Source: Candidatus Obscuribacteraceae bacterium
Lineage (GTDB): Bacteria > Cyanobacteriota > Vampirovibrionia > Obscuribacterales > Obscuribacteraceae
Assembly: GCA_044226015.1 (NCBI GenBank)
Contig: JBGAHS010000003.1
Coordinates: forward strand, 608,001 to 672,000
Direction: 5' to 3'
Length of the DNA stretch: 64,000 nt
Made by a program: the position numbers and the translations under genes. A model generated the notes under the pieces. The model was not told the origin of the DNA. It made no database searches and saw nothing but the letters and a program-made list of their open reading frames with translations. Of the stretch, positions 32,600 through 59,906 are shown one piece after another. The stretch's first letter is position 1. The number at the start of each line of letters is the position of its first letter.

Positions 32600-33015
32600 A
32601 AGAACTAGAAAGAACAACAGAGAAAGATCTGGGCCAATCCAAGGTTATCGCCTAAGCTACGCTGCATTCGCAAAGCAGCGCGAGGTGGACTGCTTTTTAA
32701 CAGGGATTTATGTTACGGCAGAAGAATGCGCGTGGCTCACACTCTAGCTTGCGCAGCAAGATAATAAAAAAATTGTGCTTAACAAACAAAGATTGAGCTG
32801 ACACTACTCAAACCAGATTTTGAGCCATGTTCGTTACTAGGCTCTGCTCGTCTCAAAGTTTCGTCCCAATATCCCCTGCAACTCCCAGCAAATAGAAAAA
32901 GCAACGCATCCATTACTTATCTCGACAGCCAAATCTGGCAGTCCAGGAAAGATGCCTGCGTTTGCCGGACGAACTTTGAGACGAACCTTCATCAACCTAA
33001 AGCAAAGGAAATAAC

Positions 33016-34137: not shown

Positions 34138-34181
34138 GGGCACAACTTGGGCACCGTAAAACTAAAGGCTGAGTAAGCCTG

Positions 34182-34220
34182 GCGCTGGTTGAGGATTCGT
34201 CCTCTTCCAGCGCTTTTTTT
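34182..34220 (+). terminator. Rho-independent terminator of the serpin
   Basis: GCGCTGG..GAGGA-TTCG-TCCTC..CCAGCGC followed by T7. Confidence 0.85.
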
Positions 34221-34287
34221 CTTCTCTGAGCATTCTATTATATCCTATCGTATTAATCCAGAGAATTGTAAAGGCGAAAGAAGAAAC

Positions 34288-34324
34288 AGGGAGGCAAGAT
34301 CCTGAGATCTTGCCTTCCCTTTTG
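34288..34324. terminator. Stem-loop between convergent genes
   Basis: AGGGAGGCAAGATC-CTGA-GATCTTGCCTTCCCT with A-rich 5' and T-rich 3' flanks. Confidence 0.7.
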
Positions 34325-34341
34325 TTCTTAGAGACGAGCTG

Positions 34342-34683
34342 CTAGAGCAGATCGCGCTCAACGCAAAGCTTCACCGCGGCTTCGTGCTCGGCAGCCTGCT
34401 GGCATGCTTCGCGAATCCAGTGGTGTGCACGCGCATAGATTTCGAGCCGATGCTTCTCGCTGCCCAGAGCTTCCTCGGTACGCGAAAGCATGATGCGCAG
34501 CGAATCGTTGCCGGAGTATTCCATGCGGAAACCCGACTCGTCGTTGAGCTGCTCGATGAGACTGGAGGCGAGTTCCGTATAGCGGCCTTCGACGCGAATT
34601 GCGAAGGGCAGCTTATAGACCCGTTCCAGGGGCGAGTGCTGGCTGAAGCTCAGCTCGGCACACTTATCCGTGTGAGCGTTCAT
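34342..34683 (-). CDS. Hypothetical protein (113 aa)
   Basis: GAAAGGA RBS; high-GC codon usage. Confidence 0.6.
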   Translation of the reverse strand: MNAHTDKCAELSFSQHSPLERVYKLPFAIRVEGRYTELASSLIEQLNDESGFRMEYSGNDSLRIMLSRTEEALGSEKHRLEIYARAHHWIREACQQAAEHEAAVKLCVERDLL

Positions 34684-34775
34684 GTTGTATCCTTTCTTAC
34701 TTTTTCAACTGTGCTAGAGAAACACAGGTGGAAAAGGTGAGTCTCCTCACCTTTTCCGACTTGTGTCTCGAATCG

Positions 34776-34952
34776 CTAGCGAAGCAGGTATCCCATCAGG
34801 AAGAAGAGCCCAGTGATAACAGTTCCGCCAATCAGACCGGGAATTGCCGGCCAGCCAGTAGCCAGCAGAACAAAGCAGCTGAGCACCCAGAGGATGATGA
34901 GCCAGCCCAGGTTGATGGGGAGATCGTTTTTGTAGCCTTCCGGTTTGTTCAT
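34776..34952 (-). CDS. 58-aa two-helix membrane micro-protein (below ORF-track cutoff)
   Basis: Translated by hand: MNKPEGYKNDLPINLGWLIILWVLSCFVLLATGWPAIPGLIGGTVITGLFFLMGYLLR*. Confidence 0.5.
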   Translation of the reverse strand: MNKPEGYKNDLPINLGWLIILWVLSCFVLLATGWPAIPGLIGGTVITGLFFLMGYLLR

Positions 34953-35024
34953 GAAAAATCCATTTGAATGTTGAAGTGAAGTTGAACGAGTGTTAGTAAC
35001 AAATAGAACCGATGAAAAAATTGA

Positions 35025-35065
35025 CTAAAGAAAGAAGCGACTCCCCGAGCCGAAACTCGGGGAGT
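35025..35065 (-). terminator. Terminator-like hairpin after the acyltransferase
   Basis: ACTCCCCGAGT-TTCG-GCTCGGGGAGT on the sense strand, then CGCTTCTTTCTTT. Confidence 0.7.
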
Positions 35066-35070
35066 GCTCA

Positions 35071-36138
35071 TCAATAGCGTTTGGCGAGTTCCAGCAGCTC
35101 AGCAATCTTGAGCCGAACCTGATCGATAGCTTCGAGTTCATCGCTCGGCAAAGAGCCAACAGCGATGGGCTCACCCACGACGACAACGCCACCATAGATG
35201 GTGATTTGCGAATGCCGGTAGGCAGCAAGCGCAGCCTCGCGTTTGGCGACCACGTCAGCACGCTCGGACGGCGAAAGCGCGTCGAGGTCGAGCTTGAACA
35301 GTGGGTCCCAGTGACGCGGGTTGCGCATACCGAGGAACAACGAACGTGTCCGGTTGAAGAGCTTCTGACTCCAGTGCGCTTCTTTCGGGTCGCGCCTGTA
35401 GTGAATCGCCAGAGGAAGAATCGAGACGGGTTCGCCCGACTCTTGTGCAGCATCTCGTGCCACACGAATGGCTCCTGCGCGAAACTCTTCCTTCTTGAGC
35501 TGATTGTCCGGCATCAACGCCCCCTGCGGTGCAATCGCAAACGCGATGTCATCGCCAGGAAGCGAGAGCGTAAAGCAGCTCGCAAAGAAAGAAGCCAGCG
35601 CCAGCAGCTCGCTACCTATGCAGAACAGGAAGGTCGCGAGCCCGAAGCCGATGATGCCGAGCCAGGCGGCAACGGCGGTGCGCATGCGCAAACCGCACTT
35701 GCGCATGGCAAGCACTTTCACGGACGCGCTCTGACCAGCAGCCCGTTCGGCTTTGGTCTTGAACGTAACCGTGACGATTCCTATCCAAGCCGCCAGCACA
35801 CCGAAGAAACCAGTGAATTGAGCAGCGTCGCCCAGGGCACGGAAGTGGCGCCCGGTGGCCGACCGCACCATGGCGAAGTCGGCAGGAATCTGATGATTGG
35901 CGACAACGACGACGCGTCCCTTGCGAGGCGCATTTTCCTTGCCGACAACCTTGATGGGTCCGATGGTGAGGAAGCCGACCAGCCGAGCCGCCCCGCAATA
36001 CATGAGCTTTGCAAAGGCGCTCGTATCGGGAACGACGTGTCCGCTAGTCTGGAGCTTCCCGGCGTGATACCGCCAGTAGAAGTACCATACCAGCACCGCC
36101 AGAAGCAGTGCGGCAGGCACACAGAGAAGTGCGCTCAT
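35071..36138 (-). CDS. PlsC-like glycerolipid acyltransferase with inserted hydrophobic hairpin
   Basis: N-terminal TM, VANHQIPAD (HxxxxD), IAPQG, ILPLAIHY, VVVGEPI; paralog of 46212-47270. Confidence 0.8.
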   Translation of the reverse strand: MSALLCVPAALLLAVLVWYFYWRYHAGKLQTSGHVVPDTSAFAKLMYCGAARLVGFLTIGPIKVVGKENAPRKGRVVVVANHQIPADFAMVRSATGRHFRALGDAAQFTGFFGVLAAWIGIVTVTFKTKAERAAGQSASVKVLAMRKCGLRMRTAVAAWLGIIGFGLATFLFCIGSELLALASFFASCFTLSLPGDDIAFAIAPQGALMPDNQLKKEEFRAGAIRVARDAAQESGEPVSILPLAIHYRRDPKEAHWSQKLFNRTRSLFLGMRNPRHWDPLFKLDLDALSPSERADVVAKREAALAAYRHSQITIYGGVVVVGEPIAVGSLPSDELEAIDQVRLKIAELLELAKRY

Positions 36139-36359
36139 TCTGTTTCTTCTTTCTCAATAAAATTTCTCCAGTTGAGAGAAGCGAGGACGGCATCGTGATG
36201 CCGTCCTGCATATTGCTGCCAGCTTTCGCCAGCGCGCACTCAAAGGCTAGCCCGTGTTAGAGGCCAGCAACAGGAATGCGCTCATTGCGCTGAGTCTTGA
36301 AACACTGCCCGAAAGGCGGAGAAGCTCCCCGCCTTTCCTCTTCGTGCAGTATTGATGCT

Positions 36360-36689
36360 TCAGCTCAGCCGGGCGAGGAGCGCGAAGAGGATCCGCTCGA
36401 TGGCCTTGATGCCGCCCACGATGAAGCCCCAGGCGACACCGACGAAGGGCACGCTGGCGACCACGCAGATGAGGCCGAAGAGATTGCCGCCGGCGACAAC
36501 CGCAGCAGTCGAGATGAAGCCCATCACGACCGCGGCAGCGACCACGCCCAGCGCGGTGAAGAAGAAGAAAGCCTCGGCGCTCCGGAACTTCCAGCGCTCG
36601 GCCAGGAAGTAGGCGACACGTCCGCTGGTGACAGCGGCGATGGCGACGGAGGCGACGATGAGGGCGAGACCGAAGATGTCGATATGCAT
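36360..36689 (-). CDS. Small membrane protein, array family B
   Basis: 109 aa, 3 hydrophobic helices, SVPFVGVAW..GG..IERIL..LLARLS; GAAAGGA RBS. Confidence 0.75.
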   Translation of the reverse strand: MHIDIFGLALIVASVAIAAVTSGRVAYFLAERWKFRSAEAFFFFTALGVVAAAVVMGFISTAAVVAGGNLFGLICVVASVPFVGVAWGFIVGGIKAIERILFALLARLS

Positions 36690-36729
36690 TGTCTGTATCC
36701 TTTCTTGTCGTATGGTCTAGCGCTGTCGA

Positions 36730-37206
36730 TCAGCGCTTGTCGCCGTTCCAGAGTTCGACCAGGAAATGCCCGAGCCCGTAGCAGGCGACGAAACCAGCAG
36801 CCGCGACGGTGCCGTTCGTCCAGTTCACGAGCGGGTTTCCGGTCGCCGTGAAGATCTGCATGCAGGCGGTGGCGAAGTAGCCCATCACGGTGAGAACCGC
36901 GACACCGGTGAAGATCTCGCCGGTGGACAGGCGCATCGAAGCCTTCTGCCGCATGTTCTTCAGCAGACGCAGGAGGAAGAAGAAGCTGCCGATGATGGCG
37001 GCGAAGAGCGTGCCGCCGAGGACGACCGGCATGATGGCCATGAAGATGCCGCCGATGTAGTTAAGGACGGCGAAGACGCCGACCACGGACGACGCACCGA
37101 CCAGCGCCAGGAAGGCGTTGGTCTTGTCGAGACCGACACGAATCACCTCGGGCTCCTTGCCGGGCTCGGGGTTGACGGCCGGGATGCTGTTGAGATCATT
37201 GCTCAT
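36730..37206 (-). CDS. Membrane protein, array family A (subtype A2)
   Basis: 158 aa, MP.VLGGTLFAAIIGSFF, VMGYFATACMQ, NPL..WT.G, LWN. Confidence 0.75.
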   Translation of the reverse strand: MSNDLNSIPAVNPEPGKEPEVIRVGLDKTNAFLALVGASSVVGVFAVLNYIGGIFMAIMPVVLGGTLFAAIIGSFFFLLRLLKNMRQKASMRLSTGEIFTGVAVLTVMGYFATACMQIFTATGNPLVNWTNGTVAAAGFVACYGLGHFLVELWNGDKR

Positions 37207-37247
37207 TTAGAACCTCGTTCTGTTCGAGTATGGGGGGGGAGAGCTGC

Positions 37248-37568
37248 TCAGTCGAACTTGCGGATCAGCTGCGAAAGCACTCGCTCGAGCGCCAGGTTGC
37301 CGCAGATGACGAAGATCCAGCTGATTCCGATGAGCGGGATGCTTCCGAGCACCGAGACGATGCCGCCGATGATGCCCAGCTTGTCGATGGCAGCACCGGA
37401 GACGAAGAACATGATGATGGCGCCAAGGCAGCCGGAGACCAGGTAAGGGAAGGGATGCGAGCCCCCCCAGCGCAGATCGGCCAGGCGAATGTAGATCTGC
37501 CCGCTGCTGACGAAGCCGAGGAACATGGAGGAGATGAAGAGAAGTCCGAAGTATGCTTGCATATTCAT
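37248..37568 (-). CDS. Small membrane protein, array family B
   Basis: AAGGAG RBS before GTG ATG; SIPLIGISW...GNLALERVL..LIRKFD. Confidence 0.75.
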   Translation of the reverse strand: MNMQAYFGLLFISSMFLGFVSSGQIYIRLADLRWGGSHPFPYLVSGCLGAIIMFFVSGAAIDKLGIIGGIVSVLGSIPLIGISWIFVICGNLALERVLSQLIRKFD

Positions 37569-37587
37569 CACGAGTCTCCTTCTGTGT

Positions 37588-38055
37588 TCAGCGGCCGGAC
37601 TTGCTCTTGTCGCCGCTCTCATTGAAGAGCTGCTTGGCAAACTTGCCGCCAGCGAAGAGCATGCCGAAGAGAGCAGCCGAACCGACACCGTAGGTCCAGA
37701 GGCTGGACGGGTCGGCACCGGGCTGGAAAGTAGCGACACAGGCGGCGGCGAAGTAGCCGAGCACGCCGATGACAGCCAGGGCACGGTAACAGTCCGTGAT
37801 GGCGACCGACTTCTGCGCAGAGCGGCGAATGCGCTTGAGCATGAAGACGATGCTGATGAAGACGCTCATCAGAGCAGCGAAGAGCGTCACGCCGGCGACG
37901 TAGGGGAAGGCGCTGGTGGCGACGAAGCCGACCAGCTTGAAGAGGCTGTAGATGCTCAGGGCGATCGCAGCCAGCAGAGCGCCGGCGCCGAGGCTGAAGA
38001 GACGACCCTTGTCGCCATCGACCTGCTCGACCGGATTGGTGTTCTCATTGCTCAT
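37588..38055 (-). CDS. Membrane protein, array family A (subtype A1)
   Basis: GAGGT RBS before MSNENT; FSLG, PYVAG.TLF, RRSAQK, GYFAAACVATFQP..DPS.LW.YG, LFNE. Confidence 0.78.
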   Translation of the reverse strand: MSNENTNPVEQVDGDKGRLFSLGAGALLAAIALSIYSLFKLVGFVATSAFPYVAGVTLFAALMSVFISIVFMLKRIRRSAQKSVAITDCYRALAVIGVLGYFAAACVATFQPGADPSSLWTYGVGSAALFGMLFAGGKFAKQLFNESGDKSKSGR

Positions 38056-38141
38056 TGTGCTTACCTCTTTTCGAGTATGGGTTGCAGAATCAGGACCCGG
38101 GAGCAGAGTCTGTTCCCGGGACAGTTTCAGACCGCTGCGGC

Positions 38142-38471
38142 TCAGGAGAGCCGGGTCATCAGCCCGTTGAGAATACGGTTGATGCCCATGGTCATGCCGA
38201 TGGGGAAGGCCCAGATGAAGCCCGCCGCCGGAATCGAAGCAGCCATGACGACGAGCCCGCCGATGTAGCCGAAGTGAGCCAGGGCCGGCACGCAGATGTA
38301 GCCCATGATGGAAGCGCAGAGCACGGCGCCACCGACACAGAAGACGAAGCCGGTGAACGTGTTCGGCCAGTCGATGCCCATCTTCTTGCAGACGAAGTCG
38401 CCGATGCGCAGTCCGGTGACGCCAGCCAGAGCGACGGTGATCACGAGGATGCAGAGAGCATAGGAGCTCAT
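38142..38471 (-). CDS. Small membrane protein, array family B
   Basis: AAGGAA RBS before MSSYAL; SIPAAGFIW...G...INRIL.GLMTRLS. Confidence 0.75.
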   Translation of the reverse strand: MSSYALCILVITVALAGVTGLRIGDFVCKKMGIDWPNTFTGFVFCVGGAVLCASIMGYICVPALAHFGYIGGLVVMAASIPAAGFIWAFPIGMTMGINRILNGLMTRLS

Positions 38472-38500
38472 GTGGTGTTTCCTTTTCTTCGAGATAAGGT

Positions 38501-38965
38501 TCAGGACTTGCTGCTGTTGCTGTCGTTCCAGAGCCCGGCGACGAAGCGCCCGAGCCCGAAGACAGTAGCGAAGCCGGCGCAGGCGATCGAGCCCGTGCAC
38601 CAAAGCGAGAGCGGGTTGCCACCGCTGCCGGTGAAGAGCTGCATGCAGGCCGTGGCGAAGTAGCCCATGACGGTGAAGACCGCCAGAGCCGTGAAGCCCT
38701 CCCAGAAGGAGAGACGCAGGCTGCTGCGCACGCGCATCAGCTTGAGCATCTTCATCAGGTAGAAGAAGCTGCCGACGATGGCAGCGAAGAGCGTCCCGCC
38801 GAGCAGGAAAGGCATCGCGCCAGCGAAGACGAGGCTCGCCTTCTGCAGGAAGTAGAAGCCCGTGCCAGCGCCAGCGGCACCGGCGGCGAAGAGCGCGATA
38901 TTGCTGAGCGTGACACCGCTGAGGTCGATGTTGATGTCGACCGGGTTCTTGGTCAGATTGCTCAT
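38501..38965 (-). CDS. Membrane protein, array family A (subtype A2)
   Basis: 154 aa, MPFLLGGTLFAAIVGSFF, VMGYFATACMQ, NPLSLWCTG, LWND. Confidence 0.78.
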   Translation of the reverse strand: MSNLTKNPVDINIDLSGVTLSNIALFAAGAAGAGTGFYFLQKASLVFAGAMPFLLGGTLFAAIVGSFFYLMKMLKLMRVRSSLRLSFWEGFTALAVFTVMGYFATACMQLFTGSGGNPLSLWCTGSIACAGFATVFGLGRFVAGLWNDSNSSKS

Positions 38966-38994
38966 GTGTACTTATCCTCTTTCTTGTGGGTTGC

Positions 38995-39333
38995 TCAGGA
39001 GAGCTTCTTGAGCAGATTTCCCAGAATCCGCTCGAGAGCCTTGTTGCCGCCGACCACCACGATCCAGCTGAAGCCGACCACGGGAATCGCCGCGAAGCAG
39101 GTGATGATGCCGAAGGGAATTCCTCCCACGTCGAGCGCCGCCTGCTGCACGAAGTAGATGATCAGCCCGGCGACAGCGCCGCCGAACAAGGTGAAGACGT
39201 CACGACCGTCCCCACGGATGCCCCAGCGATTCGCAAAGTTGCGCGCGAAGATGCCGCTGGAGACGCCGGCATAGATGACCGCCAGCATGGTGAGGAAGGT
39301 GGAGAACTCGAAGGGAAGCATGCTGTAGTGCAT
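38995..39333 (-). CDS. Small membrane protein, array family B
   Basis: 112 aa, GVSSG, AIPVVGFSW...GGNKALERILGNLLKKLS. Confidence 0.75.
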   Translation of the reverse strand: MHYSMLPFEFSTFLTMLAVIYAGVSSGIFARNFANRWGIRGDGRDVFTLFGGAVAGLIIYFVQQAALDVGGIPFGIITCFAAIPVVGFSWIVVVGGNKALERILGNLLKKLS

Positions 39334-39358
39334 TTGTCAGTTCCTTCTGCTTGAGCTT

Positions 39359-39640
39359 TCAGCTCGGGATGTCGATGTTGCGGAGAGCCTTGAGAGTCTC
39401 CCAGATGTGGCTGGCACCGATGCCAGCGAACAGCATGTAGAGACCCCAGACGGCGACTTGCAGCCACCCGTTGTCGGGAAGCAGGAAGGGCGTGAGCATA
39501 GCCGCGCCCACCATCGTGATGAGCACGAAGGCGACGCGAGCTTGCATCTGGTGATGCACCAGCCAGAGCCAGACGCGGTAGGCGCCGACGCCGACGATTG
39601 CCAGCAGAATGATGCTGATGATACCGAGAACGGCAGACAT
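39359..39640 (-). CDS. Small 3-TM membrane protein (singleton 'C' in the array)
   Basis: AAAGGA RBS before MSAVLGII; 93 aa, three hydrophobic segments. Confidence 0.65.
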   Translation of the reverse strand: MSAVLGIISIILLAIVGVGAYRVWLWLVHHQMQARVAFVLITMVGAAMLTPFLLPDNGWLQVAVWGLYMLFAGIGASHIWETLKALRNIDIPS

Positions 39641-39665
39641 TAGGATTTCCTTTCGTCGTTCGAGC

Positions 39666-40196
39666 TCAGTTGGTCTTCGACTTCTTGGCCGAGCCCTCAT
39701 TGAAGAGCTGGCCAGCCCACTTGCCGCCGCCGAAGAGCATGCCGAAGAGGGCCGCCGTGCCGACACCGTAGCTCCAGAGCGTGGACGGGTCGGAAGCGGG
39801 CTGGAAGGTGGCGACGCAGGCGGCGGCGAAGAAGCCGAGCACCGAAATCACCGCCATCGCCGTGTAGCAGTCCCAGATGGCGAAGGTCTTCTGCGCCGAG
39901 CGGCGGAACTTCTTCAGCATCGTCACGATGCTGAGGAAGACGGTCATCAGCGTGACGAAGAGCGCCGCGCCGGCGACGTAGGGCGCCGCCGAGCTGATGA
40001 TGCCGCTGACGAGAGCGACGAGGCTGTAGCCGCTGAGGATGACGGCGGCCACGACCGCTCCGAGACCGAGCGAGAACATGCCCCCCTTGTTGCCGCTCTC
40101 CGTGGTCGGAGTCGGCGTCTCGGGAGCCTTGGGCGCATCGGGAGTCGGGGAGGTCGGGGCGACCGTTTCTCCGGGATTCTGATTGATGTCCGTCAT
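39666..40196 (-). CDS. Membrane protein, array family A (subtype A1) with Pro/Thr-rich N-terminus
   Basis: GAAGGA RBS before MTDINQ; FSLG, PYVAGAALF, RRSAQK, GFFAAACVATFQP.SDPS.LWSYG, LFNE. Confidence 0.78.
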   Translation of the reverse strand: MTDINQNPGETVAPTSPTPDAPKAPETPTPTTESGNKGGMFSLGLGAVVAAVILSGYSLVALVSGIISSAAPYVAGAALFVTLMTVFLSIVTMLKKFRRSAQKTFAIWDCYTAMAVISVLGFFAAACVATFQPASDPSTLWSYGVGTAALFGMLFGGGKWAGQLFNEGSAKKSKTN

Positions 40197-40316
40197 TGAC
40201 GAAATCCTTCGTTGCGTTGAGCGTACTTCAGACGCTCTGTTGAAGCTTGTGCGGAGCCCCGGATGGACTCCGCACGGTTTGCCAGTAGCACTTGCCACCG
40301 TTTACGCATTACAACG

Positions 40317-40970
40317 CTAGATGCGCTCCCAGTTCATCGTCGGCGGCGTGAGCACACCGAGCGAGAGTCCGAACTTGAGAGCGTCGTCGACCCGCATATC
40401 GGTCTCGACGACAGCGCTTGTGGGAACGACGACGACGACACCGCTTGTCGGGTTCGGCATCATCGGCACATAGATGATGTAGCGCTTCACATCACCTTCG
40501 TGCGCGGGCGGAATTTCGTTGGTCACGAAGCCCATGGTTTTGAGCCCCGGAGTCCAGTCGAGGAACACGACCTTACGGAAGCGTGATTCGCCCCCTTGCT
40601 CGCCGAATGAATCCACGACATTGCGCGCCGATGAATAGATGAGGCGCAGGACCGGCGTTTTGTGAAGAACGCTGTCCACGAAATTCAGACCGATTTGTCC
40701 ATGCCGGAACGCAGCGAGCGCGCCGACAAGGCTCAAAAGAAGCAACGCCATGATGAGACTGACGCCTGGAATATGTCCTTCAGCCAGCGGTCCTTTCAAC
40801 CAGCTAGCCGGCAAGACGCGACGCACAAACTCGTCAGCGAAACTGCCGAAGGCAGCGTCAACGAGATTGTATGCGAAGTTCAGGACAACGATGCTCAAAA
40901 TCAGTGGCGCCAGGAAGAGCGCACCGCGAATGATGGCGGCACGCAATTTCTCAGCAAGATTTGTAGTCAT
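40317..40970 (-). CDS. DUF502 family membrane protein
   Basis: G.LFLAPL, P..R.IYSSAR.V, MGFVT, YVPMMPNPTSG, V.DALK..LSLG. Confidence 0.88.
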   Translation of the reverse strand: MTTNLAEKLRAAIIRGALFLAPLILSIVVLNFAYNLVDAAFGSFADEFVRRVLPASWLKGPLAEGHIPGVSLIMALLLLSLVGALAAFRHGQIGLNFVDSVLHKTPVLRLIYSSARNVVDSFGEQGGESRFRKVVFLDWTPGLKTMGFVTNEIPPAHEGDVKRYIIYVPMMPNPTSGVVVVVPTSAVVETDMRVDDALKFGLSLGVLTPPTMNWERI

Positions 40971-41169
40971 AGCTCGTTCCTTTCGGAAGAACCGACAAGG
41001 GGGGCGAGCGAACTCGCCTCCCTTGCGTTCTGGCGGGCGCGGTTTGCGCCTGCCAGTCCAGCGTGATAGAAGAACAAGCTTGCGCTTATTCTATCGAAGT
41101 AATTGATCAGGCGTGACCGTCAGGTTGCGTAAACCTGTCAACCACCCATGATGCTGATGCTGCGTCAGC

Positions 41170-43002
41170 TTACTTCGACTCAGCGTAGACCGCGTCGATT
41201 TCAGCAGCGAAGCGCTTGATGAGCACCTTGCTGCGAATCTTCAGGGTCTCGGTGATGACGCCACTGTCGATGGTGGCAGCCAGCGGCATGATCTTGAACC
41301 GCTTCACCTGCTCCCAGTGCTCGAGCGACTTGTTGGCGCCAGCGATGGCTTCCGCCACAGCCGCCTTCACCGCATCGTGCTCGGCGTAGAACTTCGCCGC
41401 GTCGGCCCCCGCAGGAGCAGCGCCAGCCAGTTTCTTCGCCTCGTCCTGATTGACGAAGATGAGCGCGATCGGATACTTGCGACCGTGAGCAACCGGCACG
41501 CTGTAGTGAATGATCGGGAAGTGCTTGAGCGCACCCTCGAGCTTCTCACGCGAGACGTACTTGCCGCCGGAAGTCTTGTACATGCCGTCCTTGCGGCCCA
41601 GCACGTAGACGAAGCCGTCGTCGTCCATGCGTCCGAGGTCGCCGGTCTTGTACCAGCCATCCTCGGAAAACGCGTTGGCGGTCGCCTCGGGGAGGTTCCA
41701 GTAGCCTTTGAAGACCTGCCCACCGAAGAGCTGAATCTCGCCGGTACCGGGCTCGTCCTCGCTCGGGTCGTGCGCGATGCGAACCTTGCAGTCCGGCACC
41801 ACGTAGCCGACCGAGCCGACCTTGTTCTTGGGACCCTTGCCGGGCGCCCAGCTCGGACGATTGGTCACGATGCCGCCGACCGTCTCCGTCGCGCCGTAGC
41901 CCTCGAGAATCTCGATGCCCAGGCGATTGAAGAAGTGCAGCACATCCGCGTTGATCGGAGCGCCACCGGAGACAGCCATGCGCAGGCGCCCGCCGAGCTT
42001 GGCGCGCACCTTGTCGAAGACGATGCGGTCGAAGATCTTCCCGGCGGTCGTTCCCGGCTTGCTCGCCAGAGCCAGCTTGAAGAGCGGCTTCCAGACGAAG
42101 AGCGTGTTGAGCACCTTGCCGATGCCTTCCGCCGGGTTCTTGACGCCGTTGTAGATCTTCTCCCATACCGCCGGCACGCCAGCCAGAACCGTGGGACGGA
42201 AGCGCCCCATGTTCTTGGCCAGCTGGTCGATCGCCGAGAAGGCGACCGGCGTGCCGTTCCAGGTGCAGAGCCCCATGCCGTCGACGCGCTCGAGCACGTG
42301 CGAGAGCGGCAGATAGCTGAGCACGAGGTCCTTCTCGGTGATGCCGAGACCGACCTGCGACATCGAAGCCATCTTGGCCGCGATGTTGCCGTGGGTGATC
42401 ATGCAGCCCTTCGGCGCGCCCGACGAACCCGACGTATAAATGAACGTCCCCAGGTCATCCGGCGCCAGGTCGGCGAAGTAGGTGCCCGGCTTGCGCTGGG
42501 CGCGCATCGCAGACAGCTCGGCATCGACCGCGGGGTAGCGGGCGAGGGACGGCGCCGCCTTGGCGACCGCCTCGAAGATGCTGCCGCCGAGCTTCACGAG
42601 GTCTTCCAGCGACGTGAGCGCATCGATGAAACGATAGCCCTCGCCGACCGTGACCTTCTTGATCTGCTCGTCGTCGGCCGCGAAGCTGAGCTTCACGCCG
42701 GCGTCCTTGAGCACGTAGGCAGCCTGCTCGGCAGAGCTGTTCGGATAGATCGGAACGGTGACGGCGCCCAGGGACTGGATGGCATAGTCCGCCCAGACCC
42801 ACTCGGCCGAGTTCCAGCCGAGAATGGCGACACGGTCGCCCTTCTGAACGCCCTTCTTGCGGAGAAACGCCATGATCAGAGCGACCGCCGTTCCCGACTG
42901 GGACCAGCTGATCTGCTTGAGATCGGCGCCGTTGTCATAGACGATGGCGCAGGCATCGGGAGTGCTGAACGCACGAGCCCAGAACTTTTGAATCAGTGTC
43001 AT
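41170..43002 (-). CDS. Long-chain fatty acid-CoA ligase (AMP-forming), paralog of 26666-28564
   Basis: IYTSGSSGAPKG, YLPLSHVLER, SGGAP, GYGATE, WYKTGDLG; AAGGAG RBS before MTLIQK. Confidence 0.93.
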   Translation of the reverse strand: MTLIQKFWARAFSTPDACAIVYDNGADLKQISWSQSGTAVALIMAFLRKKGVQKGDRVAILGWNSAEWVWADYAIQSLGAVTVPIYPNSSAEQAAYVLKDAGVKLSFAADDEQIKKVTVGEGYRFIDALTSLEDLVKLGGSIFEAVAKAAPSLARYPAVDAELSAMRAQRKPGTYFADLAPDDLGTFIYTSGSSGAPKGCMITHGNIAAKMASMSQVGLGITEKDLVLSYLPLSHVLERVDGMGLCTWNGTPVAFSAIDQLAKNMGRFRPTVLAGVPAVWEKIYNGVKNPAEGIGKVLNTLFVWKPLFKLALASKPGTTAGKIFDRIVFDKVRAKLGGRLRMAVSGGAPINADVLHFFNRLGIEILEGYGATETVGGIVTNRPSWAPGKGPKNKVGSVGYVVPDCKVRIAHDPSEDEPGTGEIQLFGGQVFKGYWNLPEATANAFSEDGWYKTGDLGRMDDDGFVYVLGRKDGMYKTSGGKYVSREKLEGALKHFPIIHYSVPVAHGRKYPIALIFVNQDEAKKLAGAAPAGADAAKFYAEHDAVKAAVAEAIAGANKSLEHWEQVKRFKIMPLAATIDSGVITETLKIRSKVLIKRFAAEIDAVYAESK

Positions 43003-43130
43003 GGAGAGAACTCCTTCTCTTTCAGGTCGCCTCTGCGACCCGGGGCACTCATCTGGAGCGCCCATTTAGCTGATGAGAACTGACAGGGTGATTTCGCAAT
43101 CACCCTGTCTCGATTGCACTGAAGAGCGGC

Positions 43131-44093
43131 TCAGACAGCCGCTTTCTTCTCCTTCTTCGCCTTCTGGTATTCGACGAACTTCGCCACGCACTCGGCCGAA
43201 GCCGGCGTGTGGCAGAGGTTGGCGAAAGAGCAGGACTCTTCCACCATCGCCGCGTTCTTGTCGCCGCGCATCGCCGCCTTCATGACCTTGAGGGCCTCGA
43301 GCGGAGCCGGATACTTGCCGCGCGTCTGGACCTTGATGGCCAGGGCGGCGAGCGCCGAGATGCAGCTGACGCCGATGGCGGAGTCGCCGATCGCACGCGT
43401 GAACTTCTGCATCGCCGAGGGCTCACGAGTCGGAGGCGACTCGCCCAGAACGACGCCGACCGCGCGGCTGAAGAGCTTCGACTCCGGCACCAGCTCGTCG
43501 ACCAGCCCAGTCTGCAGCGCCTTGCGCGCCGACCAGGGCTTGAGCGGGTTGGTGATGAGCGGCACAGCAGCAGCGAAGCCCAGCATCAGCGGAGCGCGCA
43601 CCGTGCCGCCCCAACCGGGAAGCACGCCGAGCGCGACCTCGGGCAGACCGATGACCGTCGACTTGTTGTCGGTGGCCAGGCGGTACTTGCAGACCAGGGT
43701 CAGCTCGGTGCCGCCGCCGAGGCAGCGACCACGAATCGCGGCGACCGTCGGAAACGGCAGCGCCTCGATGCGCGCGAGCAGAGCCTTGCCCTGATTGCAG
43801 CCGTCGTAGGCGATTTCGGGCGGCATCGACTGCGCGTACTGAATCTCCTTGATGTCGGCGCCGGCGATGAAGCAGTCGTCCTTGGAAGAGCGGAAGACAG
43901 CGCCGACGAACTCGCCGGGCTTCTCGAGCACCTTCACGACATGGTCGAGCTCCTTCATCACCAAGCTGGACAGCAGGTTGACCTTGCTGACCTTGCTGTC
44001 GAAGGTGACGATGGCGACGCGGTTCGACAGAGTGCTGAGCTCGACGACGTTGCCACGGAAGAGAAGACGAGACTTGATGGGGTTGCGGGTCAT
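43131..44093 (-). CDS. Enoyl-CoA hydratase/isomerase resembling an isolated FadJ/FadB N-terminal domain
   Basis: FIAGADIKE, CLGGGTEL, GLPEVALGVLPGWGGT, GLVDELVP, YPAP; both catalytic Glu present; no dehydrogenase domain. Confidence 0.9.
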   Translation of the reverse strand: MTRNPIKSRLLFRGNVVELSTLSNRVAIVTFDSKVSKVNLLSSLVMKELDHVVKVLEKPGEFVGAVFRSSKDDCFIAGADIKEIQYAQSMPPEIAYDGCNQGKALLARIEALPFPTVAAIRGRCLGGGTELTLVCKYRLATDNKSTVIGLPEVALGVLPGWGGTVRAPLMLGFAAAVPLITNPLKPWSARKALQTGLVDELVPESKLFSRAVGVVLGESPPTREPSAMQKFTRAIGDSAIGVSCISALAALAIKVQTRGKYPAPLEALKVMKAAMRGDKNAAMVEESCSFANLCHTPASAECVAKFVEYQKAKKEKKAAV

Positions 44094-44165
44094 GTAATCC
44101 TCATTTCATCAGGTTGAGGCGCCGCACCGTATTTGGTGCGGCGCCAGAGGGATAGAACGAAGGGT

Positions 44166-44981
44166 TCAGGCGCTCGGCTTGAGCGCGAGAACCTTCTGCC
44201 TGAGAATCTCGGTGGCTTCGCGAGGGTCGCTCGGAAGCTCCGTGTTGGCAATCGGCTCGCCGATCACGACTTTGACGCCGCGCCGATAGTAGAACGCACC
44301 GACGAGCGGCACGAGCCACTGCAGCGGGATGGGCAGCTTCAGAATCCACTTGCCCGGGTAGCGCCCGTAGTGCATGTAACCGGGCACGACGTGAACCGGT
44401 CGGCCCAGACGAGCGGACGCTTCCTGAACCATACGAACGGCGCCGGTCTTGAACTTGCCGACCGTTCCATCCATATTGGTCCAGGCCTCGGGGAAGATGA
44501 CCTCGATGTTGGCGCCGTCCTCGGCGGTGAGAACTTTCACCGACGCGTTGAAGGCGGCATGACCATTGTCGAGGTCGACAGAGAAGACGCCCCACTTGCT
44601 GAAGAGCAAGCCGAGCAGCCCGCCACCGACCTTCATCACGCCCTGCGCTGCCGGGTATCGAGCCTTGCGGTTGAGCACCACAGGAGCGATCGCCACGTCG
44701 AGCAGACTGCCGTGATTGAAGGCCAGCACGAAGGGAGCCGGCAAATCCGCCAGCTTCTCATGCCCGACTGCGTCGATCTTGCCGACGAAGCCATCGACCC
44801 AAGCCTTCGCGAAACGCACCATTCCACGGTGCGCCCGGTCAGACGGGGTCGGAGCCAAGTAGCCGCACTCGACGACTTGCTTGGCTCTCCTGAGAGCATC
44901 CTTCAAACGGGGAAGAAACCAGGCCAGTGCGGCAGCGAAAGCGCCGCAGGCCAGGAGCAGAACAATCAAGTTGATCGACAT
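44166..44981 (-). CDS. 1-acyl-sn-glycerol-3-phosphate acyltransferase-like (PlsC family)
   Basis: N-terminal TM, FNHGSLLD, IFPEA, FKTGAVR, VVPG, VVIGEPI. Confidence 0.88.
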   Translation of the reverse strand: MSINLIVLLLACGAFAAALAWFLPRLKDALRRAKQVVECGYLAPTPSDRAHRGMVRFAKAWVDGFVGKIDAVGHEKLADLPAPFVLAFNHGSLLDVAIAPVVLNRKARYPAAQGVMKVGGGLLGLLFSKWGVFSVDLDNGHAAFNASVKVLTAEDGANIEVIFPEAWTNMDGTVGKFKTGAVRMVQEASARLGRPVHVVPGYMHYGRYPGKWILKLPIPLQWLVPLVGAFYYRRGVKVVIGEPIANTELPSDPREATEILRQKVLALKPSA

Positions 44982-45022
44982 GTCGATCTCCTTCTGGATC
45001 CAATTAGATGAGAACCACGGGC

Positions 45023-46114
45023 TCAGTAGAGCCCGTGATCAGCGAACACCCGCTCGGCACGCCGGGCGAGGTCTTGCTTCTCCTTTGCAGGAGCCGGAAT
45101 GTAGTCGCGCCAGTAGCCCAGCGCGTCGAACAGGCTCTGCACCTTCTCGAGCCTCTCGCCAGCCAGCAGCCCCTCCAGAGCCAGACGTGCCGTAGCCGCT
45201 TCGAAGCTGACCAGCATCGCCAGCCACTTCTCGTCGTCCGACAAGTTGAACTTCAGGGAGTGGACATGCTCGATGTGCGGGCGGAACTCGATGACGCCAG
45301 TGGTCTCCGGACCCCAATGGAAATCCGGGTGAACCTGCCAGAGCACGCGAGCCATCCTGTGCAGCCGACCAGAGACAGGGCTGAGCCTGTCTTCGCCGAC
45401 GCGGCAGGCGATGATCTTGCGCGGGTCCGAACCGAAATGACGAATCATCACGCCCACCGGGCAGAGACCGTCACGGCTCAGACCGCCATCGAAGAGCATC
45501 ATGCCCTTGTACTCGATGGCGGCGATGACACCGACGATGGTGGCACTGGACCGCACAGCCAGCTCGAGCGGAGCAGGATGAACGGACAGCTGCGTCTTGC
45601 GACCAAAGGTATCGCAGAGGAAGACGCCGTCCTTGTTGAAGACAACGGCAGAGCCGTCGCGCGTGGTCGCCATCGTCACGAACTTCTCCGGCCAGCTCTC
45701 GATGCCGCGCTTGCGGGCTTCGTTGAGCACGAACTTGCCGAGGTTGTTGGAACCCAGCAGTCCGGTCACATGCCAGTCGGCGTACTCCTTCGGGCCGGTA
45801 GGCTCGATGAGCGAGTCCATGCCGCGACGCAGCACGTTGCCGACCCCACGGCGAATGGCGTGAGCCATACCGTCCTGGAACGTGACGTACCTGGTGAAGT
45901 CGGTCTCCAGCGTGATATGCAGCGCCTCTTTCGCGCTGATACCGGTCGCGGTGACGGCACTGAAGATGCCACCGCCGCTGACGCCGAAGTTCTTCGTGAT
46001 CTTCAAGCCAGCCATGCCGCACGCGGCAAAGGCACCAGCTCCGGCGAGCACAGCTGTCGCACCGCCCGAGCTAATCGCGAGCTCATAGCCGCTGGCAACA
46101 TCCGTGTTAGTCAT
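45023..46114 (-). CDS. Patatin-like phospholipase
   Basis: SSGGATA, GVSGG, FDGG; GAGAGGT RBS before MTNTDV. Confidence 0.85.
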   Translation of the reverse strand: MTNTDVASGYELAISSGGATAVLAGAGAFAACGMAGLKITKNFGVSGGGIFSAVTATGISAKEALHITLETDFTRYVTFQDGMAHAIRRGVGNVLRRGMDSLIEPTGPKEYADWHVTGLLGSNNLGKFVLNEARKRGIESWPEKFVTMATTRDGSAVVFNKDGVFLCDTFGRKTQLSVHPAPLELAVRSSATIVGVIAAIEYKGMMLFDGGLSRDGLCPVGVMIRHFGSDPRKIIACRVGEDRLSPVSGRLHRMARVLWQVHPDFHWGPETTGVIEFRPHIEHVHSLKFNLSDDEKWLAMLVSFEAATARLALEGLLAGERLEKVQSLFDALGYWRDYIPAPAKEKQDLARRAERVFADHGLY

Positions 46115-46211
46115 AACGCACCTCTCTTTCCACAAGAGAAAGAGGGAACCCAGCGTGAGCCGGGGTCCCTCTAGTCGTGGGTGAATCAGGGTTGAAGTGA
46201 GTGAGAAGCGA

Positions 46212-47270
46212 TCAGTGCTGCTTCGCGGTCTCGTAGAGCTCCACGATGCGAGCGCGAACGATGGCGATGGCCTCGATCGGATCTTCCGGCAGGTCAGCGA
46301 TGGAGATGGGGTCGCCGACCACGACAACGCCACCGTAGTTGGTGACGTTGGACTTCTTGTGCGCCTTCATGATCTCCTTGCGCTTCGCCTCGGACTCGGC
46401 ACGCTCGTCCGCGGTCATGGCTTCCAGGTCCTTCTTGAACTCCGGATTCCAGGCCTTGGGGTTGCGGGTGCCGAGGAACATGGAACGCATGCCCTTGAGG
46501 TGGCGGTGCGTCCAGTCGGCGCCGTTCGGGTCGCGCTTGTAGTGAATCGCCATCGGAACGATGGTGACCGGCTCGCCAGCAGCCGAAGCCGCAGCCTTGC
46601 CAATGCGCACAGCACCCGGACGGAAGAGTTCCTTCATGTCCGGGTCATCCGGCAGAAGGGCGCCCTGCGGGAAGATGCCGAGGGCGGGGCCGCTGCCAGG
46701 CATGCCGGCAACGACCAGAGCGAGAACGACCGCACCGAGGGCATACCAGGGCATGCCGAAGTGCAGAGACGCGACGAAGCCGGCAGCCGAAGCGAGCCAC
46801 AGGGTCACAGCGACACCGAAGCTGATGCGCCAGTTCTTGGCGGCAACAGAACGAATGCAGCCTTGCTCAGCAGCCTGACCATCGGTCTTCTGCTTGAACG
46901 CAACCGAGATGACGCCGCCGCAAGCAGCGAGCACGCCGAAGAAGCCGCCCAGCTGGTCCGCAGCGGTGAGCATGCGGAAGTGGCGCCCCGAACCGCGACG
47001 AACCATCGCGAAGTCGCAGGGCAGTTGGTGGTTGGCGGCGAAGATCACTCGCCCGCCGCGCGGAAGCTTGTTCTTGCCGATCACCTTGACCTTGCCGACC
47101 GTGAGGAAGGTCAGCAGGTAGGCGAACGCAGCCATGCCGAACTCACCGAACCAGCTCGTCTGCGGCGGCACGTAGCCGCTCTGCGGGAAGCGGGCAGCGT
47201 GGCCCTTCCAGAACATGTACCAACCGGCAACGCCGAACAGCGCGCCGAGGATGCTGATGATGTAGATCAT
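46212..47270 (-). CDS. PlsC-like glycerolipid acyltransferase with inserted hydrophobic hairpin
   Basis: N-terminal TM, AANHQLPCD, IFPQG, IVPMAIHY, VVVGDPI; GGAG RBS before MIYIIS. Confidence 0.82.
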   Translation of the reverse strand: MIYIISILGALFGVAGWYMFWKGHAARFPQSGYVPPQTSWFGEFGMAAFAYLLTFLTVGKVKVIGKNKLPRGGRVIFAANHQLPCDFAMVRRGSGRHFRMLTAADQLGGFFGVLAACGGVISVAFKQKTDGQAAEQGCIRSVAAKNWRISFGVAVTLWLASAAGFVASLHFGMPWYALGAVVLALVVAGMPGSGPALGIFPQGALLPDDPDMKELFRPGAVRIGKAAASAAGEPVTIVPMAIHYKRDPNGADWTHRHLKGMRSMFLGTRNPKAWNPEFKKDLEAMTADERAESEAKRKEIMKAHKKSNVTNYGGVVVVGDPISIADLPEDPIEAIAIVRARIVELYETAKQH

Positions 47271-47432
47271 CTTGTATCTCCGTAGAGTTTGAGAGTTAAA
47301 GCTGCACATGCAGTCTTCGAAATAGGGCTCAGCTGGAAGCTTTAGCCCCTCCGTGAAGAAAGCTCACCGGGTAGCCACTTCCTATATTTAGTGGCGAGCC
47401 AGAAAGCCCATTTGCCTTGCGGTAGAAACAGC

Positions 47433-47537
47433 TCAGGAGAGGACGTTCAGGTTTCCGAACATCTTCTTCATGAGTTCGTCCCAGGACTTGCGCGGATGCA
47501 CAATCCAGCGGACAGCTTTGCGGATGCGTTCTTTCAT
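47433..47537 (-). CDS. 34-aa amphipathic micro-peptide
   Basis: AAGGAG 6 nt before ATG; MKERIRKAVRWIVHPRKSWDELMKKMFGNLNVLS*; codons (CGC, ATC, AAG, TTC, AAC) match flanking genes. Confidence 0.55.
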   Translation of the reverse strand: MKERIRKAVRWIVHPRKSWDELMKKMFGNLNVLS

Positions 47538-47610
47538 GCATCGCTCCTTTTTTCTTCTTTTAGAGGAAGAACGAGGGGAGAGCTTGCGCTCGCCCCTCGT
47601 CCGGAGAACC

Positions 47611-49584
47611 TCAGTCCTTCTGTTCGTAGGACTGGAAGATGGGCTTCACCGGAACGCCCTGGAGCTCACGAATGTTGCCACTCATGATGTGCCCCATGGT
47701 CTCCTTCGAAGCCGCCTTGATGCCCTTCGAGGTCGGCGCCTTGCCGCTGAGACGGCAGGTCATCATCTCGCAGAGCATGTTGAGGGCAGCCACACGACCG
47801 GTATCACCGGCGGCGGCAGCGCTACGCGCACCCTCGATGGCGACGAACATCGTGACGATGTCGGCCAGCGGCTGGTAGACCTCGAACTCGGTGATGAGCT
47901 GCTCGTCTGCGAGCTTCTCGCCGAACTTGAACACGAGCGAGACGAGGTTCTTCTTCCAGGCGAACCACTTCTTGGCCGCGAACTCGAGATGCGCGATGAA
48001 ACGCTCGTCGAGCCCGCTCAGGTCGCCGACGACCTTGCCCTTCTTGACGCCGCGGTAGCAGTTGAACAGCACCGGCAGGAAGCCCGAGGCGCCGCCGATG
48101 ATCTTCTTGCGATTCTTCACGAGACCGCTCTTGCCCTTCCACAGCGTGGCGAGGATGGTCGGCAGGCCGAGGTGGAACTTCTTCAGGTTCGGCATCAGGT
48201 CGAACATGTTGACGCCGGCTTCCTTGAAGCCACGCCCCATGTCCTCCAGACCCGCACCGCGAAGCGCCTTGACCAGCGAGTTGACGCCAGCCTGAGCCAG
48301 CATCGGGTTCGGACCCTCGTAGACGCTTGCGACCAGCGCGTTGGCGATGTTGTCGCCGAGCGGATGACCGCGGAAGAACGAGCGCCCACCGTGGATTTCG
48401 ATCCCGGTCTTGCACATCACGTCCCGGAGCTCGTTGGTGCTCCAGGTCTTGGCGATCATCGCCGAGAGGTCACCGGCGCGACCCTGGTCCACCTGGTCGG
48501 CGGTCCAGAGCGAGAGCAGCTCCGAGCCGGCGATGTCGGCCGCGATCGTCGCCATGCGATACTGGATGCCCAGCCGCTGGTCGAGCGTCACGCCGAAGGT
48601 CTTGCGCATCTTCACCCACTGCGGACAGGAGGCGAGAATGATGCTCATCATGATCGAGGCGCTGACGCCGACCGCCCAGCGGCCGTCGTCGAGATCCTTG
48701 AAGATGGCTTCCAGACCGTTGCCGGGCAGAATGTTGCCGACCGGAACGCGCAGCCCGTTGAAGACGAGGCCGTTGTTCTCGAGCGCCGGCTGCAGAACGT
48801 GCAGGTTGTAGCGGTTGAGCCGGAACTCAGCCGTGTCCTCCTTCGGCAGGTCGACCTTCACGACCTTGAACTGGTCGTTGATCTTCATGAACACCGCCAC
48901 CTCGGCGCCGTAGGTCGCGCGCGAGATGAAGAGCTTCTCGCCATAGATGCGCAGCTCGTCGCCTTCGATGACGCCGTAGGTGCGAATCTTGGTGATGTTG
49001 CAGCCAGCCGAGGGCTCGGTACCGGCGAAGGCGCCCTGGAAGAGCGCGGTCGCCATGTGCGAGAGGAAGACCTGCTTCTGCTCTTCGGTGCCGAAGTGCT
49101 TGAGCGCACCGACCGGACCGATGAGCGTCTTCACCGACATGGTGCCGGGGATAACGGGGTCGCCGATGCGGCCGAGAACCAGCATGACCTTCGCGAGGTC
49201 TTGCATGGTTGCGCCAGCTCCGCCGTACTCGGTCGGGATGGTGAGCCCGTAGAAGCCGGCGGTGGTGAGTTCGGCCTCGAGCGTCGGATTGAAGGCGCCC
49301 TTCTCGTTGAAGAGGGCATTCTTGCCGAGGTATTCCTCGACGAGCGCGACGCAGCGATCCAGAACGACCTTGACGCTCGGCGTCATCTCGTCGCCCTTGC
49401 GAGCGAAGAGGCTGATGTCGAGGTCACGGGAGAGAAGCGCCTCCTGGATGGCTCCGGGAAGCTTCTGATGCTTGCTGGCCGCAGCTTGCGCATTGTCGAC
49501 CGCGTTGACAGCATCGATTTCCTGCTGACCCTTGCCGGCTCGCTTGAGGGCATCGGTGAGCAGATCATTGGAATGATTGGTCAT
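47611..49584 (-). CDS. Acyl-CoA dehydrogenase (long, FadE/ACADVL-like)
   Basis: GLTIPTEYGGAG, FGTEEQK, AFAGTEPSAG, GEKLFIS, LDDGR, RKTFG, IHGGR, VYEG.N; AAGGA RBS before MTNHSN. Confidence 0.92.
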   Translation of the reverse strand: MTNHSNDLLTDALKRAGKGQQEIDAVNAVDNAQAAASKHQKLPGAIQEALLSRDLDISLFARKGDEMTPSVKVVLDRCVALVEEYLGKNALFNEKGAFNPTLEAELTTAGFYGLTIPTEYGGAGATMQDLAKVMLVLGRIGDPVIPGTMSVKTLIGPVGALKHFGTEEQKQVFLSHMATALFQGAFAGTEPSAGCNITKIRTYGVIEGDELRIYGEKLFISRATYGAEVAVFMKINDQFKVVKVDLPKEDTAEFRLNRYNLHVLQPALENNGLVFNGLRVPVGNILPGNGLEAIFKDLDDGRWAVGVSASIMMSIILASCPQWVKMRKTFGVTLDQRLGIQYRMATIAADIAGSELLSLWTADQVDQGRAGDLSAMIAKTWSTNELRDVMCKTGIEIHGGRSFFRGHPLGDNIANALVASVYEGPNPMLAQAGVNSLVKALRGAGLEDMGRGFKEAGVNMFDLMPNLKKFHLGLPTILATLWKGKSGLVKNRKKIIGGASGFLPVLFNCYRGVKKGKVVGDLSGLDERFIAHLEFAAKKWFAWKKNLVSLVFKFGEKLADEQLITEFEVYQPLADIVTMFVAIEGARSAAAAGDTGRVAALNMLCEMMTCRLSGKAPTSKGIKAASKETMGHIMSGNIRELQGVPVKPIFQSYEQKD

Positions 49585-49734
49585 GTCATTAGTCCTTGTT
49601 GCGAGAACCGCGAGCAACCGAATGGCGCTGCTGAGTCCTCGTTGGTCAGACAGAATCGACCCAAAGAGTTGGAACTTCAGCTCCAACCTTGAGTACTCGC
49701 GTTTGTGATAGAGAAACGTCAAAGTCCGCCGAGC

Positions 49735-49896
49735 TTATCCCCTTTCGAGGAGAAACCAGACGAACCCGAGAACCGCCTCAGTCGTGTAGCAAGAGATGAG
49801 GAAACCCACCGGGTTAGCCACACGCTGCACACGACTTTCAAAGCAGTAGAGCACAACAGGTGCAAGCATGGCGATTGCCAGAAGAAAGACTGCCAT
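49735..49896 (-). CDS. 53-aa membrane micro-protein heading the lipid locus
   Basis: AAGGAG RBS; MAVFLLAIAMLAPVVLYCFESRVQRVANPVGFLISCYTTEAVLGFVWFLLERG* (hand translation). Confidence 0.5.
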   Translation of the reverse strand: MAVFLLAIAMLAPVVLYCFESRVQRVANPVGFLISCYTTEAVLGFVWFLLERG

Positions 49897-57399: not shown

Positions 57400-57408
57400 G
57401 GCGGGTTT

Positions 57409-57612
57409 ATGACAAACACAGTATTGACCCAAGAAACGAAGCCGCTTCAAGAGCACCCCGAAGCGCCCAAGCCGCACCGCCCATGGTGGCTCTCCACATT
57501 ACAGTTCACTGGAACTCTTTTACTCGGAGTTTGTGTGCTCGAATCCTATTTCAACTTTGCCGGAGTTGGGAACGAAGAGTTTTTGCAAAATGGGATAACA
57601 GGTCTTACGTAG
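57409..57612 (+). pseudogene. Probable 5' fragment of an MBOAT partner (AlgJ/SGNH-type) gene
   Basis: Starts 9 nt after the MBOAT stop, has one TM anchor, then stops after 67 aa where the high-GC PrkA block begins; identity inferred from context. Confidence 0.45.
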
Positions 57613-59867: not shown

Positions 59868-59906
59868 GCCCCAGCCATTCACCTTTAGATTGAGAGGAAT
59901 TAAATC

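Follow-up and report, generated by a model that had tools for sequence, protein, structure and literature searches.

The stretch of DNA analysed here (the window, 64,000 nucleotides, G000:C6:608001-672000) contains at positions 36360-40196 of its minus strand an array of nine intact open reading frames (ORFs), g1 to g9. These are predicted to encode small membrane proteins of three families, A, B and C, and lie within an operon of genes for lipid enzymes. In order of transcription, the array reads A1-C-B-A2-B-A1-B-A2-B, where A1 and A2 are subfamilies of family A. The genes are as follows, with lengths in amino acids (aa) and transmembrane spans given as TM:

39666..40196, minus strand: g1, family A, subfamily A1, 176 aa; tail rich in S, T, P and E, two uncharged hairpins with a basic loop between them, C-terminal amphipathic helix
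39359..39640, minus strand: g2, family C, 93 aa, about 3 TM; slot always between the first A1 and the first B gene
38995..39333, minus strand: g3, family B, 112 aa; 3 TM and a conserved C-terminal amphipathic helix
38501..38965, minus strand: g4, family A, subfamily A2, 154 aa
38142..38471, minus strand: g5, family B, 109 aa
37588..38055, minus strand: g6, family A, subfamily A1, 155 aa, 64% identical to g1
37248..37568, minus strand: g7, family B, 106 aa
36730..37206, minus strand: g8, family A, subfamily A2, 158 aa, 49% identical to g4
36360..36689, minus strand: g9, family B, 109 aa; AlphaFold2 (AF2) model with a predicted local distance difference test score (pLDDT) of 92.7

The intergenic gaps measure 19-86 nt, and a purine-rich run resembling a Shine-Dalgarno (SD) sequence lies ahead of every start. 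Three of the A genes (g4, g6 and g8) start with ATGAGCAAT, while CCCATACTCGAA is found ahead of g6 and g8. A sequence-only reading that preceded this analysis had described nine contiguous, intact minus-strand ORFs, each with its own ribosome-binding site, which was confirmed from the sequence. The region 34700-41300 was recovered as a single contig in X2, an activated-sludge run from 2016 that belongs to another study, with 52 differences; of the 40 that were listed, seven fall within the array, six being synonymous and one nonsynonymous. As the nine ORFs are intact and the X2 contig spans the array with mostly synonymous changes, the genes are real and no artefact of assembly.

The gene order and the grouping into families A and B, both proposed in the sequence-only reading, were borne out by shuffle tests and by a tree. 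Within the window array, significant alignments were present for all 12 within-family pairs: all six A-A pairs (z 22-77) and all six B-B pairs (z 9-22) scored above 300 of 300 shuffles. The C protein reached z scores of at most 0.7 against all eight others. Among the 16 A-B pairs, z did not exceed 4.8, with 0 of 300 shuffles as good for one pair; comparison of the A and B profiles gave a probability of 0.5%, so that the two families are regarded as unrelated, and profile probabilities were at most 2.3% throughout for A-B, C-A and C-B homology and for an internal repeat in A. The split between A1 and A2 is deep (tree support 100/100). The shared motifs that had been noted mostly stood, except that the first A motif reads P...G..LF, and that g7 lacks the W....G and the final LS of the B motif.

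Proteins of family A are predicted to begin with a variable polar N-terminal tail, followed by an uncharged run, in most copies about 50-60 residues long, that has a conserved central proline and would form a first hairpin. After a basic K..R loop and a conserved D/E, a second predicted hairpin follows, likewise uncharged, in which G, C, F and W are invariant, and then an amphipathic C-terminal helix. The predicted topology has 4 TM arranged as two hairpins, with both termini inside and a positive-inside charge distribution. In proteins of family B, a basic RW loop is predicted to link TM1 to a hairpin of the form TM2-GG-TM3, after which comes a conserved, cytoplasmic amphipathic helix, GxNKAIER(I/V)L; their variability is greatest in the cytoplasmic loop and TM2, not in the exposed outer loop. 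AF2 modelled B (g9) confidently as three helices, and A (g6) as three long, poorly packed helices with a predicted template modelling score (pTM) of 0.48; a monomer this far from compact is what would be expected if A folds in an oligomer. In the set of 33 array proteins used for motif and moment tests (15 A and 18 B), 32 showed C-terminal hydrophobic moments of 0.4-1.0, versus medians near 0.2. Alignments of array proteins contained no conserved acidic or basic residue inside the spans of A or B, which would argue against ion coupling or catalysis.

The distribution of the array is narrow. Among 107 genomes of the order, family A was present in two, which belong to one genus; eight genomes of the genus were searched for C, and two contained it. 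For family B, only 11 candidates were scored in each of 401 genomes of the class; four genomes gave matches, two of them with full arrays, one with a relic and one with a marginal hit. A profile of four A sequences, run unfiltered and at all lengths against 1.84 billion representatives, returned ten real relatives of 146-186 aa; a 1842-aa repeat protein matching at E 2.9e-4 was dropped, and no fused A form was taken from this search. Word-based searches found 25 A and 11 B proteins, the window's own included. No longer or fused forms of B were seen among 8000 candidates, which is weak evidence, and no match was found in viral contigs, in plasmids (searched for A only), or in phages (searched for B only).

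One further array, G002:C56, has exactly the order of the window, A1-C-B-A2-B-A1-B-A2-B, and the genome of the window carries on its contig C9 a single unit, A1-B-A2-B, without C. Three of five other candidate loci were kept, L028 and L029 being dropped as acyl-CoA dehydrogenases. The metagenome contig L025 reads A1-C-B-A2-B-A1-B and then enters an A2 gene, the start of which overlaps that of L026 (A2-B-B-B), and the two are probably parts of one eleven-gene array; L027 reads A2-B-B, followed by the start of an A1 gene. All 15 A genes with visible downstream DNA, which represent about four independent lineages, lead into a B gene, 12 directly and three via C. A1 alternates with A2 in every array in which both are visible; the B genes differ in number. 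A and B were always found together in full arrays and their order is conserved across lineages, in agreement with the A-B adjacency that had been presumed, despite cross-lineage identities of 36-53% for A and 21-45% for B. C had been called a singleton, which holds in this genome, but orthologues of g2 occupy the same slot in G002 and L025.

Some minor observations were made on these loci. At L025:5100-5365, the contig jumps from the A2 start into the second B gene of L026 (97.6% identical), which may be either a deletion variant or a misassembly. A decayed relic at L056:1498-1733 (G007:C24, at about 64.9 kb) comprises a C-terminal B fragment (E 4e-13) adjoined by a C-terminal A fragment (E 0.002), and heads a block of raised GC content. 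At L057:1228-1710 (G001:C14), the first 70 residues of a 161-aa membrane protein are weakly B-like (E 9e-4), among other small membrane ORFs and with no A nearby. A small soluble protein of no known family adjoins both the C9 and the L026 arrays (L013:14008-14403 and L026:1808-2131; z 11, 0 of 500 shuffles), to which the product of window positions 34342-34683 is only marginally similar.

The copies of A and B follow different evolutionary patterns. Identity within arrays exceeds that between arrays for A1 (0.67 vs 0.46) and A2 (0.59 vs 0.43), whereas B shows no such effect (0.33 vs 0.32). Likewise, A1 and A2 copies cluster by array and not by slot, which B copies do not, and approximately unbiased (AU) tests rejected orthology by slot for both A1 (p 9.7e-5) and A2 (p 1.8e-9). 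The two A2 genes of G002 diverge strongly in their first third and little thereafter, a pattern that resembles a conversion tract. Given that the arrays share their gene order, with C in the first unit only, a single ancient doubling, after which gene conversion acted on the A genes, is the simpler explanation. The duplication of a four-gene unit put forward in the sequence-only reading could thus be upheld for A1 and A2, but not for B, whose copies do not track their slot. The surprising feature is that a nine-gene order fixed across lineages is combined with this asymmetry, in which the A copies are homogenised, while the B copies are divergent and expandable.

As had been surmised for A and B, no known family could be assigned. 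In Pfam, nothing scored above the cut-off for A, B or C (37 A and 17 B members were scanned), nor did anything in NCBIfam. PHROGs yielded nothing beyond weak matching at E 0.013, the anti-phage models of PADLOC matched one of the nine proteins at E 0.013, with none above noise, and the best hit of a PDB sequence search had an E of 0.23. The best scores in the ESM Atlas (0.88 and 0.87) were under lead level, fold searches returned generic helical bundles and coiled coils (best Z 7.2 for B and 8.5 for A), and Foldseek found no match at E <= 0.001 for models of array proteins. The GtrA/DPMS flippase-like family PF04138 was rejected as a candidate, given that g9 scored 14.3 bits against a gathering cut-off of 26.1; weak matches to it occurred in 4 of 17 B members (best E 0.0086). 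No description of the array was found in the paper listings and opening lines of abstracts that were searched, which did not include subscription journals, and the supplements of one preprint (bioRxiv 10.1101/2022.01.26.477801) may list the families. The same preprint gives an average of 616 unknown families per genome for the order; orphan membrane proteins are common in this group, and the unknown status of A, B and C is therefore unsurprising by itself. The three families match nothing known and the arrangement is new; the novelty claimed is one of families and arrangement and not of mechanism.

The array sits in a GC-rich block (GC 0.61 vs approximately 0.47 for the genome). The GC content at third codon positions (GC3) of its genes is 0.82-0.90 versus a host median of 0.455; only 34 of 5593 ORFs reach 0.82, and ribosomal-operon ORFs lie at 0.36-0.56. 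Its relative synonymous codon usage (RSCU) correlates at 0.93 with that of the neighbouring lipid genes, and at -0.06 with that of the host. The genome has approximately 300 kb of such GC-rich islands with non-host codon usage, including window positions 32900-50000 and 57400-64000.

From the observed gene content, gene order, co-occurrence and evolutionary pattern, and the predicted topology, we infer an assembly and a function. The best explanation, with a probability of roughly 0.4, is that the array forms an operon complete in itself, the products of which would assemble into an abundant complex of the inner membrane. A1 and A2 would make up its core, B would supply exchangeable subunits, and the whole would serve as a scaffold or shaping coat, or as a passive pore. 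Such an operon, gained and lost between genomes, would encode a single heteromeric complex, in which the A1+A2 pair would be fixed, several loosely constrained B proteins would dock onto it as exchangeable subunits, and C would be optional. The unit would have been doubled for dosage, with gene conversion keeping the A copies alike so that co-assembly persists, and its position inside a lipid operon would be due to secondary insertion. A structural role, at most that of a passive pore and not that of an enzyme or ion-coupled transporter, appears most likely because the membrane spans lack any conserved residue that is charged or catalytic. The sequence-only reading had proposed obligate A/B heteromeric subunits; a heteromeric membrane complex is still the best reading, but a strict 1:1 pairing of A and B is at odds with A2-B-B-B in L026 and A2-B-B-A1 in L027. 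As runs of B occur and A splits into alternating subfamilies, the fixed pair looks like A1 and A2 instead.

A more far-reaching version, in which a fixed A1:A2 core homogenised by gene conversion and a tandem library of interchangeable B proteins, differing in number and sequence from lineage to lineage, would make up an undescribed class of bacterial membrane assembly, a combinatorial scaffold or gated pore, is tentative at best. If true, such a combinatorial assembly would coat internal membranes or lipid domains, or act as a regulated killing pore, in non-photosynthetic bacteria related to cyanobacteria. The 3.9-kb cassette has no toxin or resistance hallmark and could be expressed whole in E. 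coli, making it directly testable; the reach of any result is limited by the narrow distribution and the uncultured host.

Several known systems share features with the array. Proteins of the reticulon, REEP(Yop1) and CURT1 types have long hydrophobic hairpins, a polar loop and an amphipathic helix, and no catalytic residues. Hydrophobic hairpins and an amphipathic helix are also present in the array proteins, a generic feature that does not amount to membership; there is no Pfam, PDB-sequence or fold match, the corresponding Pfam families were absent from the matches at E <= 0.1, and the array consists of three families in one ordered bacterial operon. SMR proteins (EmrE, EbrAB) have 4 TM, a membrane-embedded Glu and about 110 aa, and SMR and Fluc proteins occur as paired paralogues with dual topology. 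B is of SMR size and the array genes are paired paralogues, but B has 3 TM, no conserved D/E in its spans, a strong positive-inside bias and no Pfam match. The mamGFDC magnetosome operons are island-borne sets of small membrane paralogues with a structural role, found in few lineages, which the array resembles in location, content and distribution; unlike them, it has no family match, and no magnetosome genes were seen beside the arrays.

The flanking genes had led the sequence-only reading to a lipid flippase, fatty-acid channel or lipid-body coat serving the adjacent patatin, acyltransferase and acyl-CoA enzymes. These neighbours, as identified with Pfam, lie outside the cassette:

40317..49722, minus strand: acyl-CoA dehydrogenase, acyltransferase, patatin, acyltransferase, enoyl-CoA hydratase, acyl-CoA ligase, DUF502
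35071..36138, minus strand: last acyltransferase of the lipid operon, with the 4.2-kb cassette between it and DUF502

In favor of such a role, the window array lies inside this operon and shares its codon usage, and the C9 unit, located between FtsH- and RseP-type protease genes, is 3.3 kb upstream of another copy on the same strand. This type of operon recurs in the genus, however, and five of the seven copies examined are arrayless (G000:C1, G002:C137, G002:C94, G003:C81 and G007:C52). Only 11 bp in G002:C137 and 72 bp in G003:C81 separate DUF502 from the last acyltransferase, and G003 has the operon without any match to A. The G002:C56 array stands apart, between a glutaminase gene and genes for TPR and amidase proteins, with its own AT-rich leader and a strong 3' hairpin and no adjacent lipid operon, and lipid enzymes are absent from the 1.9 kb preceding L025 and the 3.5 kb following L026. 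The arrayless operons, the two direct joins and the free-standing array leave service to the lipid enzymes unsupported, and as the matches to GtrA are also far under the cut-off, we consider this role improbable. The most fitting view is that of an autonomous cassette which entered the window's lipid operon secondarily; it may be tied to lipids in function, but need not be.

By analogy with known toxin systems, A1 and A2 might instead form a two-component pore, directed against competitors or causing self-killing or addiction, with the B proteins as 3-TM immunity, gating or plug proteins that diversify and multiply in tandem, like those of polymorphic toxin loci. This seems unlikely to us, even though a conserved two-member core with diverse, expandable runs of B, the patchy occurrence (two genomes among 107 in the order, and a decayed relic in G007), and the foreign appearance of the cassette would all fit. 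The contact-dependent bacteriocin system CdzC/CdzD/CdzI of Caulobacter (PMC5380434) combines type I secretion, toxins of 84-86 aa with glycine zippers, and one immunity gene, whose product CdzI is likewise a small 3-TM protein encoded beside two toxin genes. Both systems have two small hydrophobic partner genes and a small 3-TM protein in one operon, but the four-span A proteins are longer, at 146-207 aa, the array's unit has been doubled, and B genes are present in several copies. No secretion system adjoins any array seen: type I secretion genes were absent from the ORFs flanking the window, C9, G002 and L025/L026 arrays, the rest of the genome not having been searched. In contrast to the Cdz toxin pair, the extended glycine zipper GxxxGxxxG occurs in only 1 of 15 A proteins. 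The positive-inside, four-span layout of A is typical of insertion into a cell's own inner membrane, B is diverse in its cytoplasmic loop and TM2 and not in the exposed outer loop, and PADLOC and PHROGs gave no match above noise. Least probable is a heteromeric, highly diverged small-solute carrier of a SemiSWEET/MPC-like type, in which A1 and A2 would form a heterodimer and B would be an accessory or supply additional three-helix units. SemiSWEET/PQ-loop proteins and MPC1/MPC2 are small, have a basic loop after a TM, and may form heterodimers of paralogues, all of which could apply to the array families; the TM2-basic loop-TM3-TM4 segment of A and the 3 TM of B would share the in/out order of the PQ-loop bundle, and two A2 proteins carry the JGI label "uncharacterized protein with PQ loop repeat". 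This label fails in hhalign comparisons, which gave probabilities of at most 0.8% for A, A1, A2, B and C against 24 PQ-loop sequences (one of them a mis-picked ORF), and in the absence of a PQ dipeptide from all 33 array proteins. At E <= 0.1, none of 37 A or 17 B members matched a PQ-loop or MtN3 family of Pfam; the only hit of this kind was to PF00810, at E 0.069 in one of the 37 A members. The 1-3-2 three-helix bundle fold was not among the best 50 rows of the fold search with either model, although a list of this kind can miss a fold.

The structural complex we favor also faces several difficulties. Fold searches gave no match that supports a scaffold, and stacked immunity genes would account just as well for runs of B that vary in length. 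High GC3 marks origin at least as much as expression, because it is common to the surrounding island. The groups for the AU tests were chosen after the larger tree had been seen, independent doubling in each lineage would yield the same A trees, and pairwise dN/dS among the paralogs is only 0.3-1.0, a measure that is unreliable because of the codon bias of the array. Finally, one of the two arrays of the window's genome is inside a lipid operon and the other no more than 3.3 kb away from one, and patatin-like and acyltransferase-like genes, recognised by eye, lie approximately 10 kb from the G002:C56 array.

Three non-coding segments were analysed for RNA structure:

40197..40316, minus strand: 120-nt spacer from DUF502 to the first A1 gene, with three hairpins and then an SD-like AAGGA
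38056..38141, minus strand: 86-nt spacer at the junction of the two units, with a weak hairpin
36301..36353, minus strand: strong hairpin directly after the last B gene (z -4.04), likely a 3' end or stabiliser

The fold of the first spacer has a z of -4.55, with 0 of 200 shuffles as good, while that of the junction spacer is not above chance (z -1.14; 22 of 200 shuffles as good). The hairpin after the last B gene is absent from the seven sites called by a terminator scan because it lacks a U run; its counterpart after the G002 array has a z of -6.08. A scan for sigma-70 sites found none above chance, and integron-like repeats were not found in the spacers of the array.

In the lipid operon of the window, the acyltransferases at 35071-36138 and 46212-47270 match Pfam only in their N-terminal part and have a hydrophobic stretch in the middle of the protein. 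This type was found only in the genus designated g1 (7 of 107 genomes at E <= 1e-20). The GC-rich islands of the genome carry lipid operons (three copies), SPFH pairs, FtsH/RseP/HtpX-type proteases and MoxR-vWA genes, as well as a PrkA/PrkA/DUF444 operon and a serpin. One PrkA-family gene usually precedes DUF444; at window positions 57483-62090, two tandem PrkA-family AAA genes do so. At L090:682-3899 (G000:C6, 698.7-701.9 kb), three tandem, near-identical genes encode coiled-coil proteins with an N-terminal anchor. A PspA-like assignment of these proteins, made by eye, was dropped after the two that were scanned gave no Pfam match. The trio adjoins a gene for a 1050-aa protein of no known family, and a similar set is present on C8.

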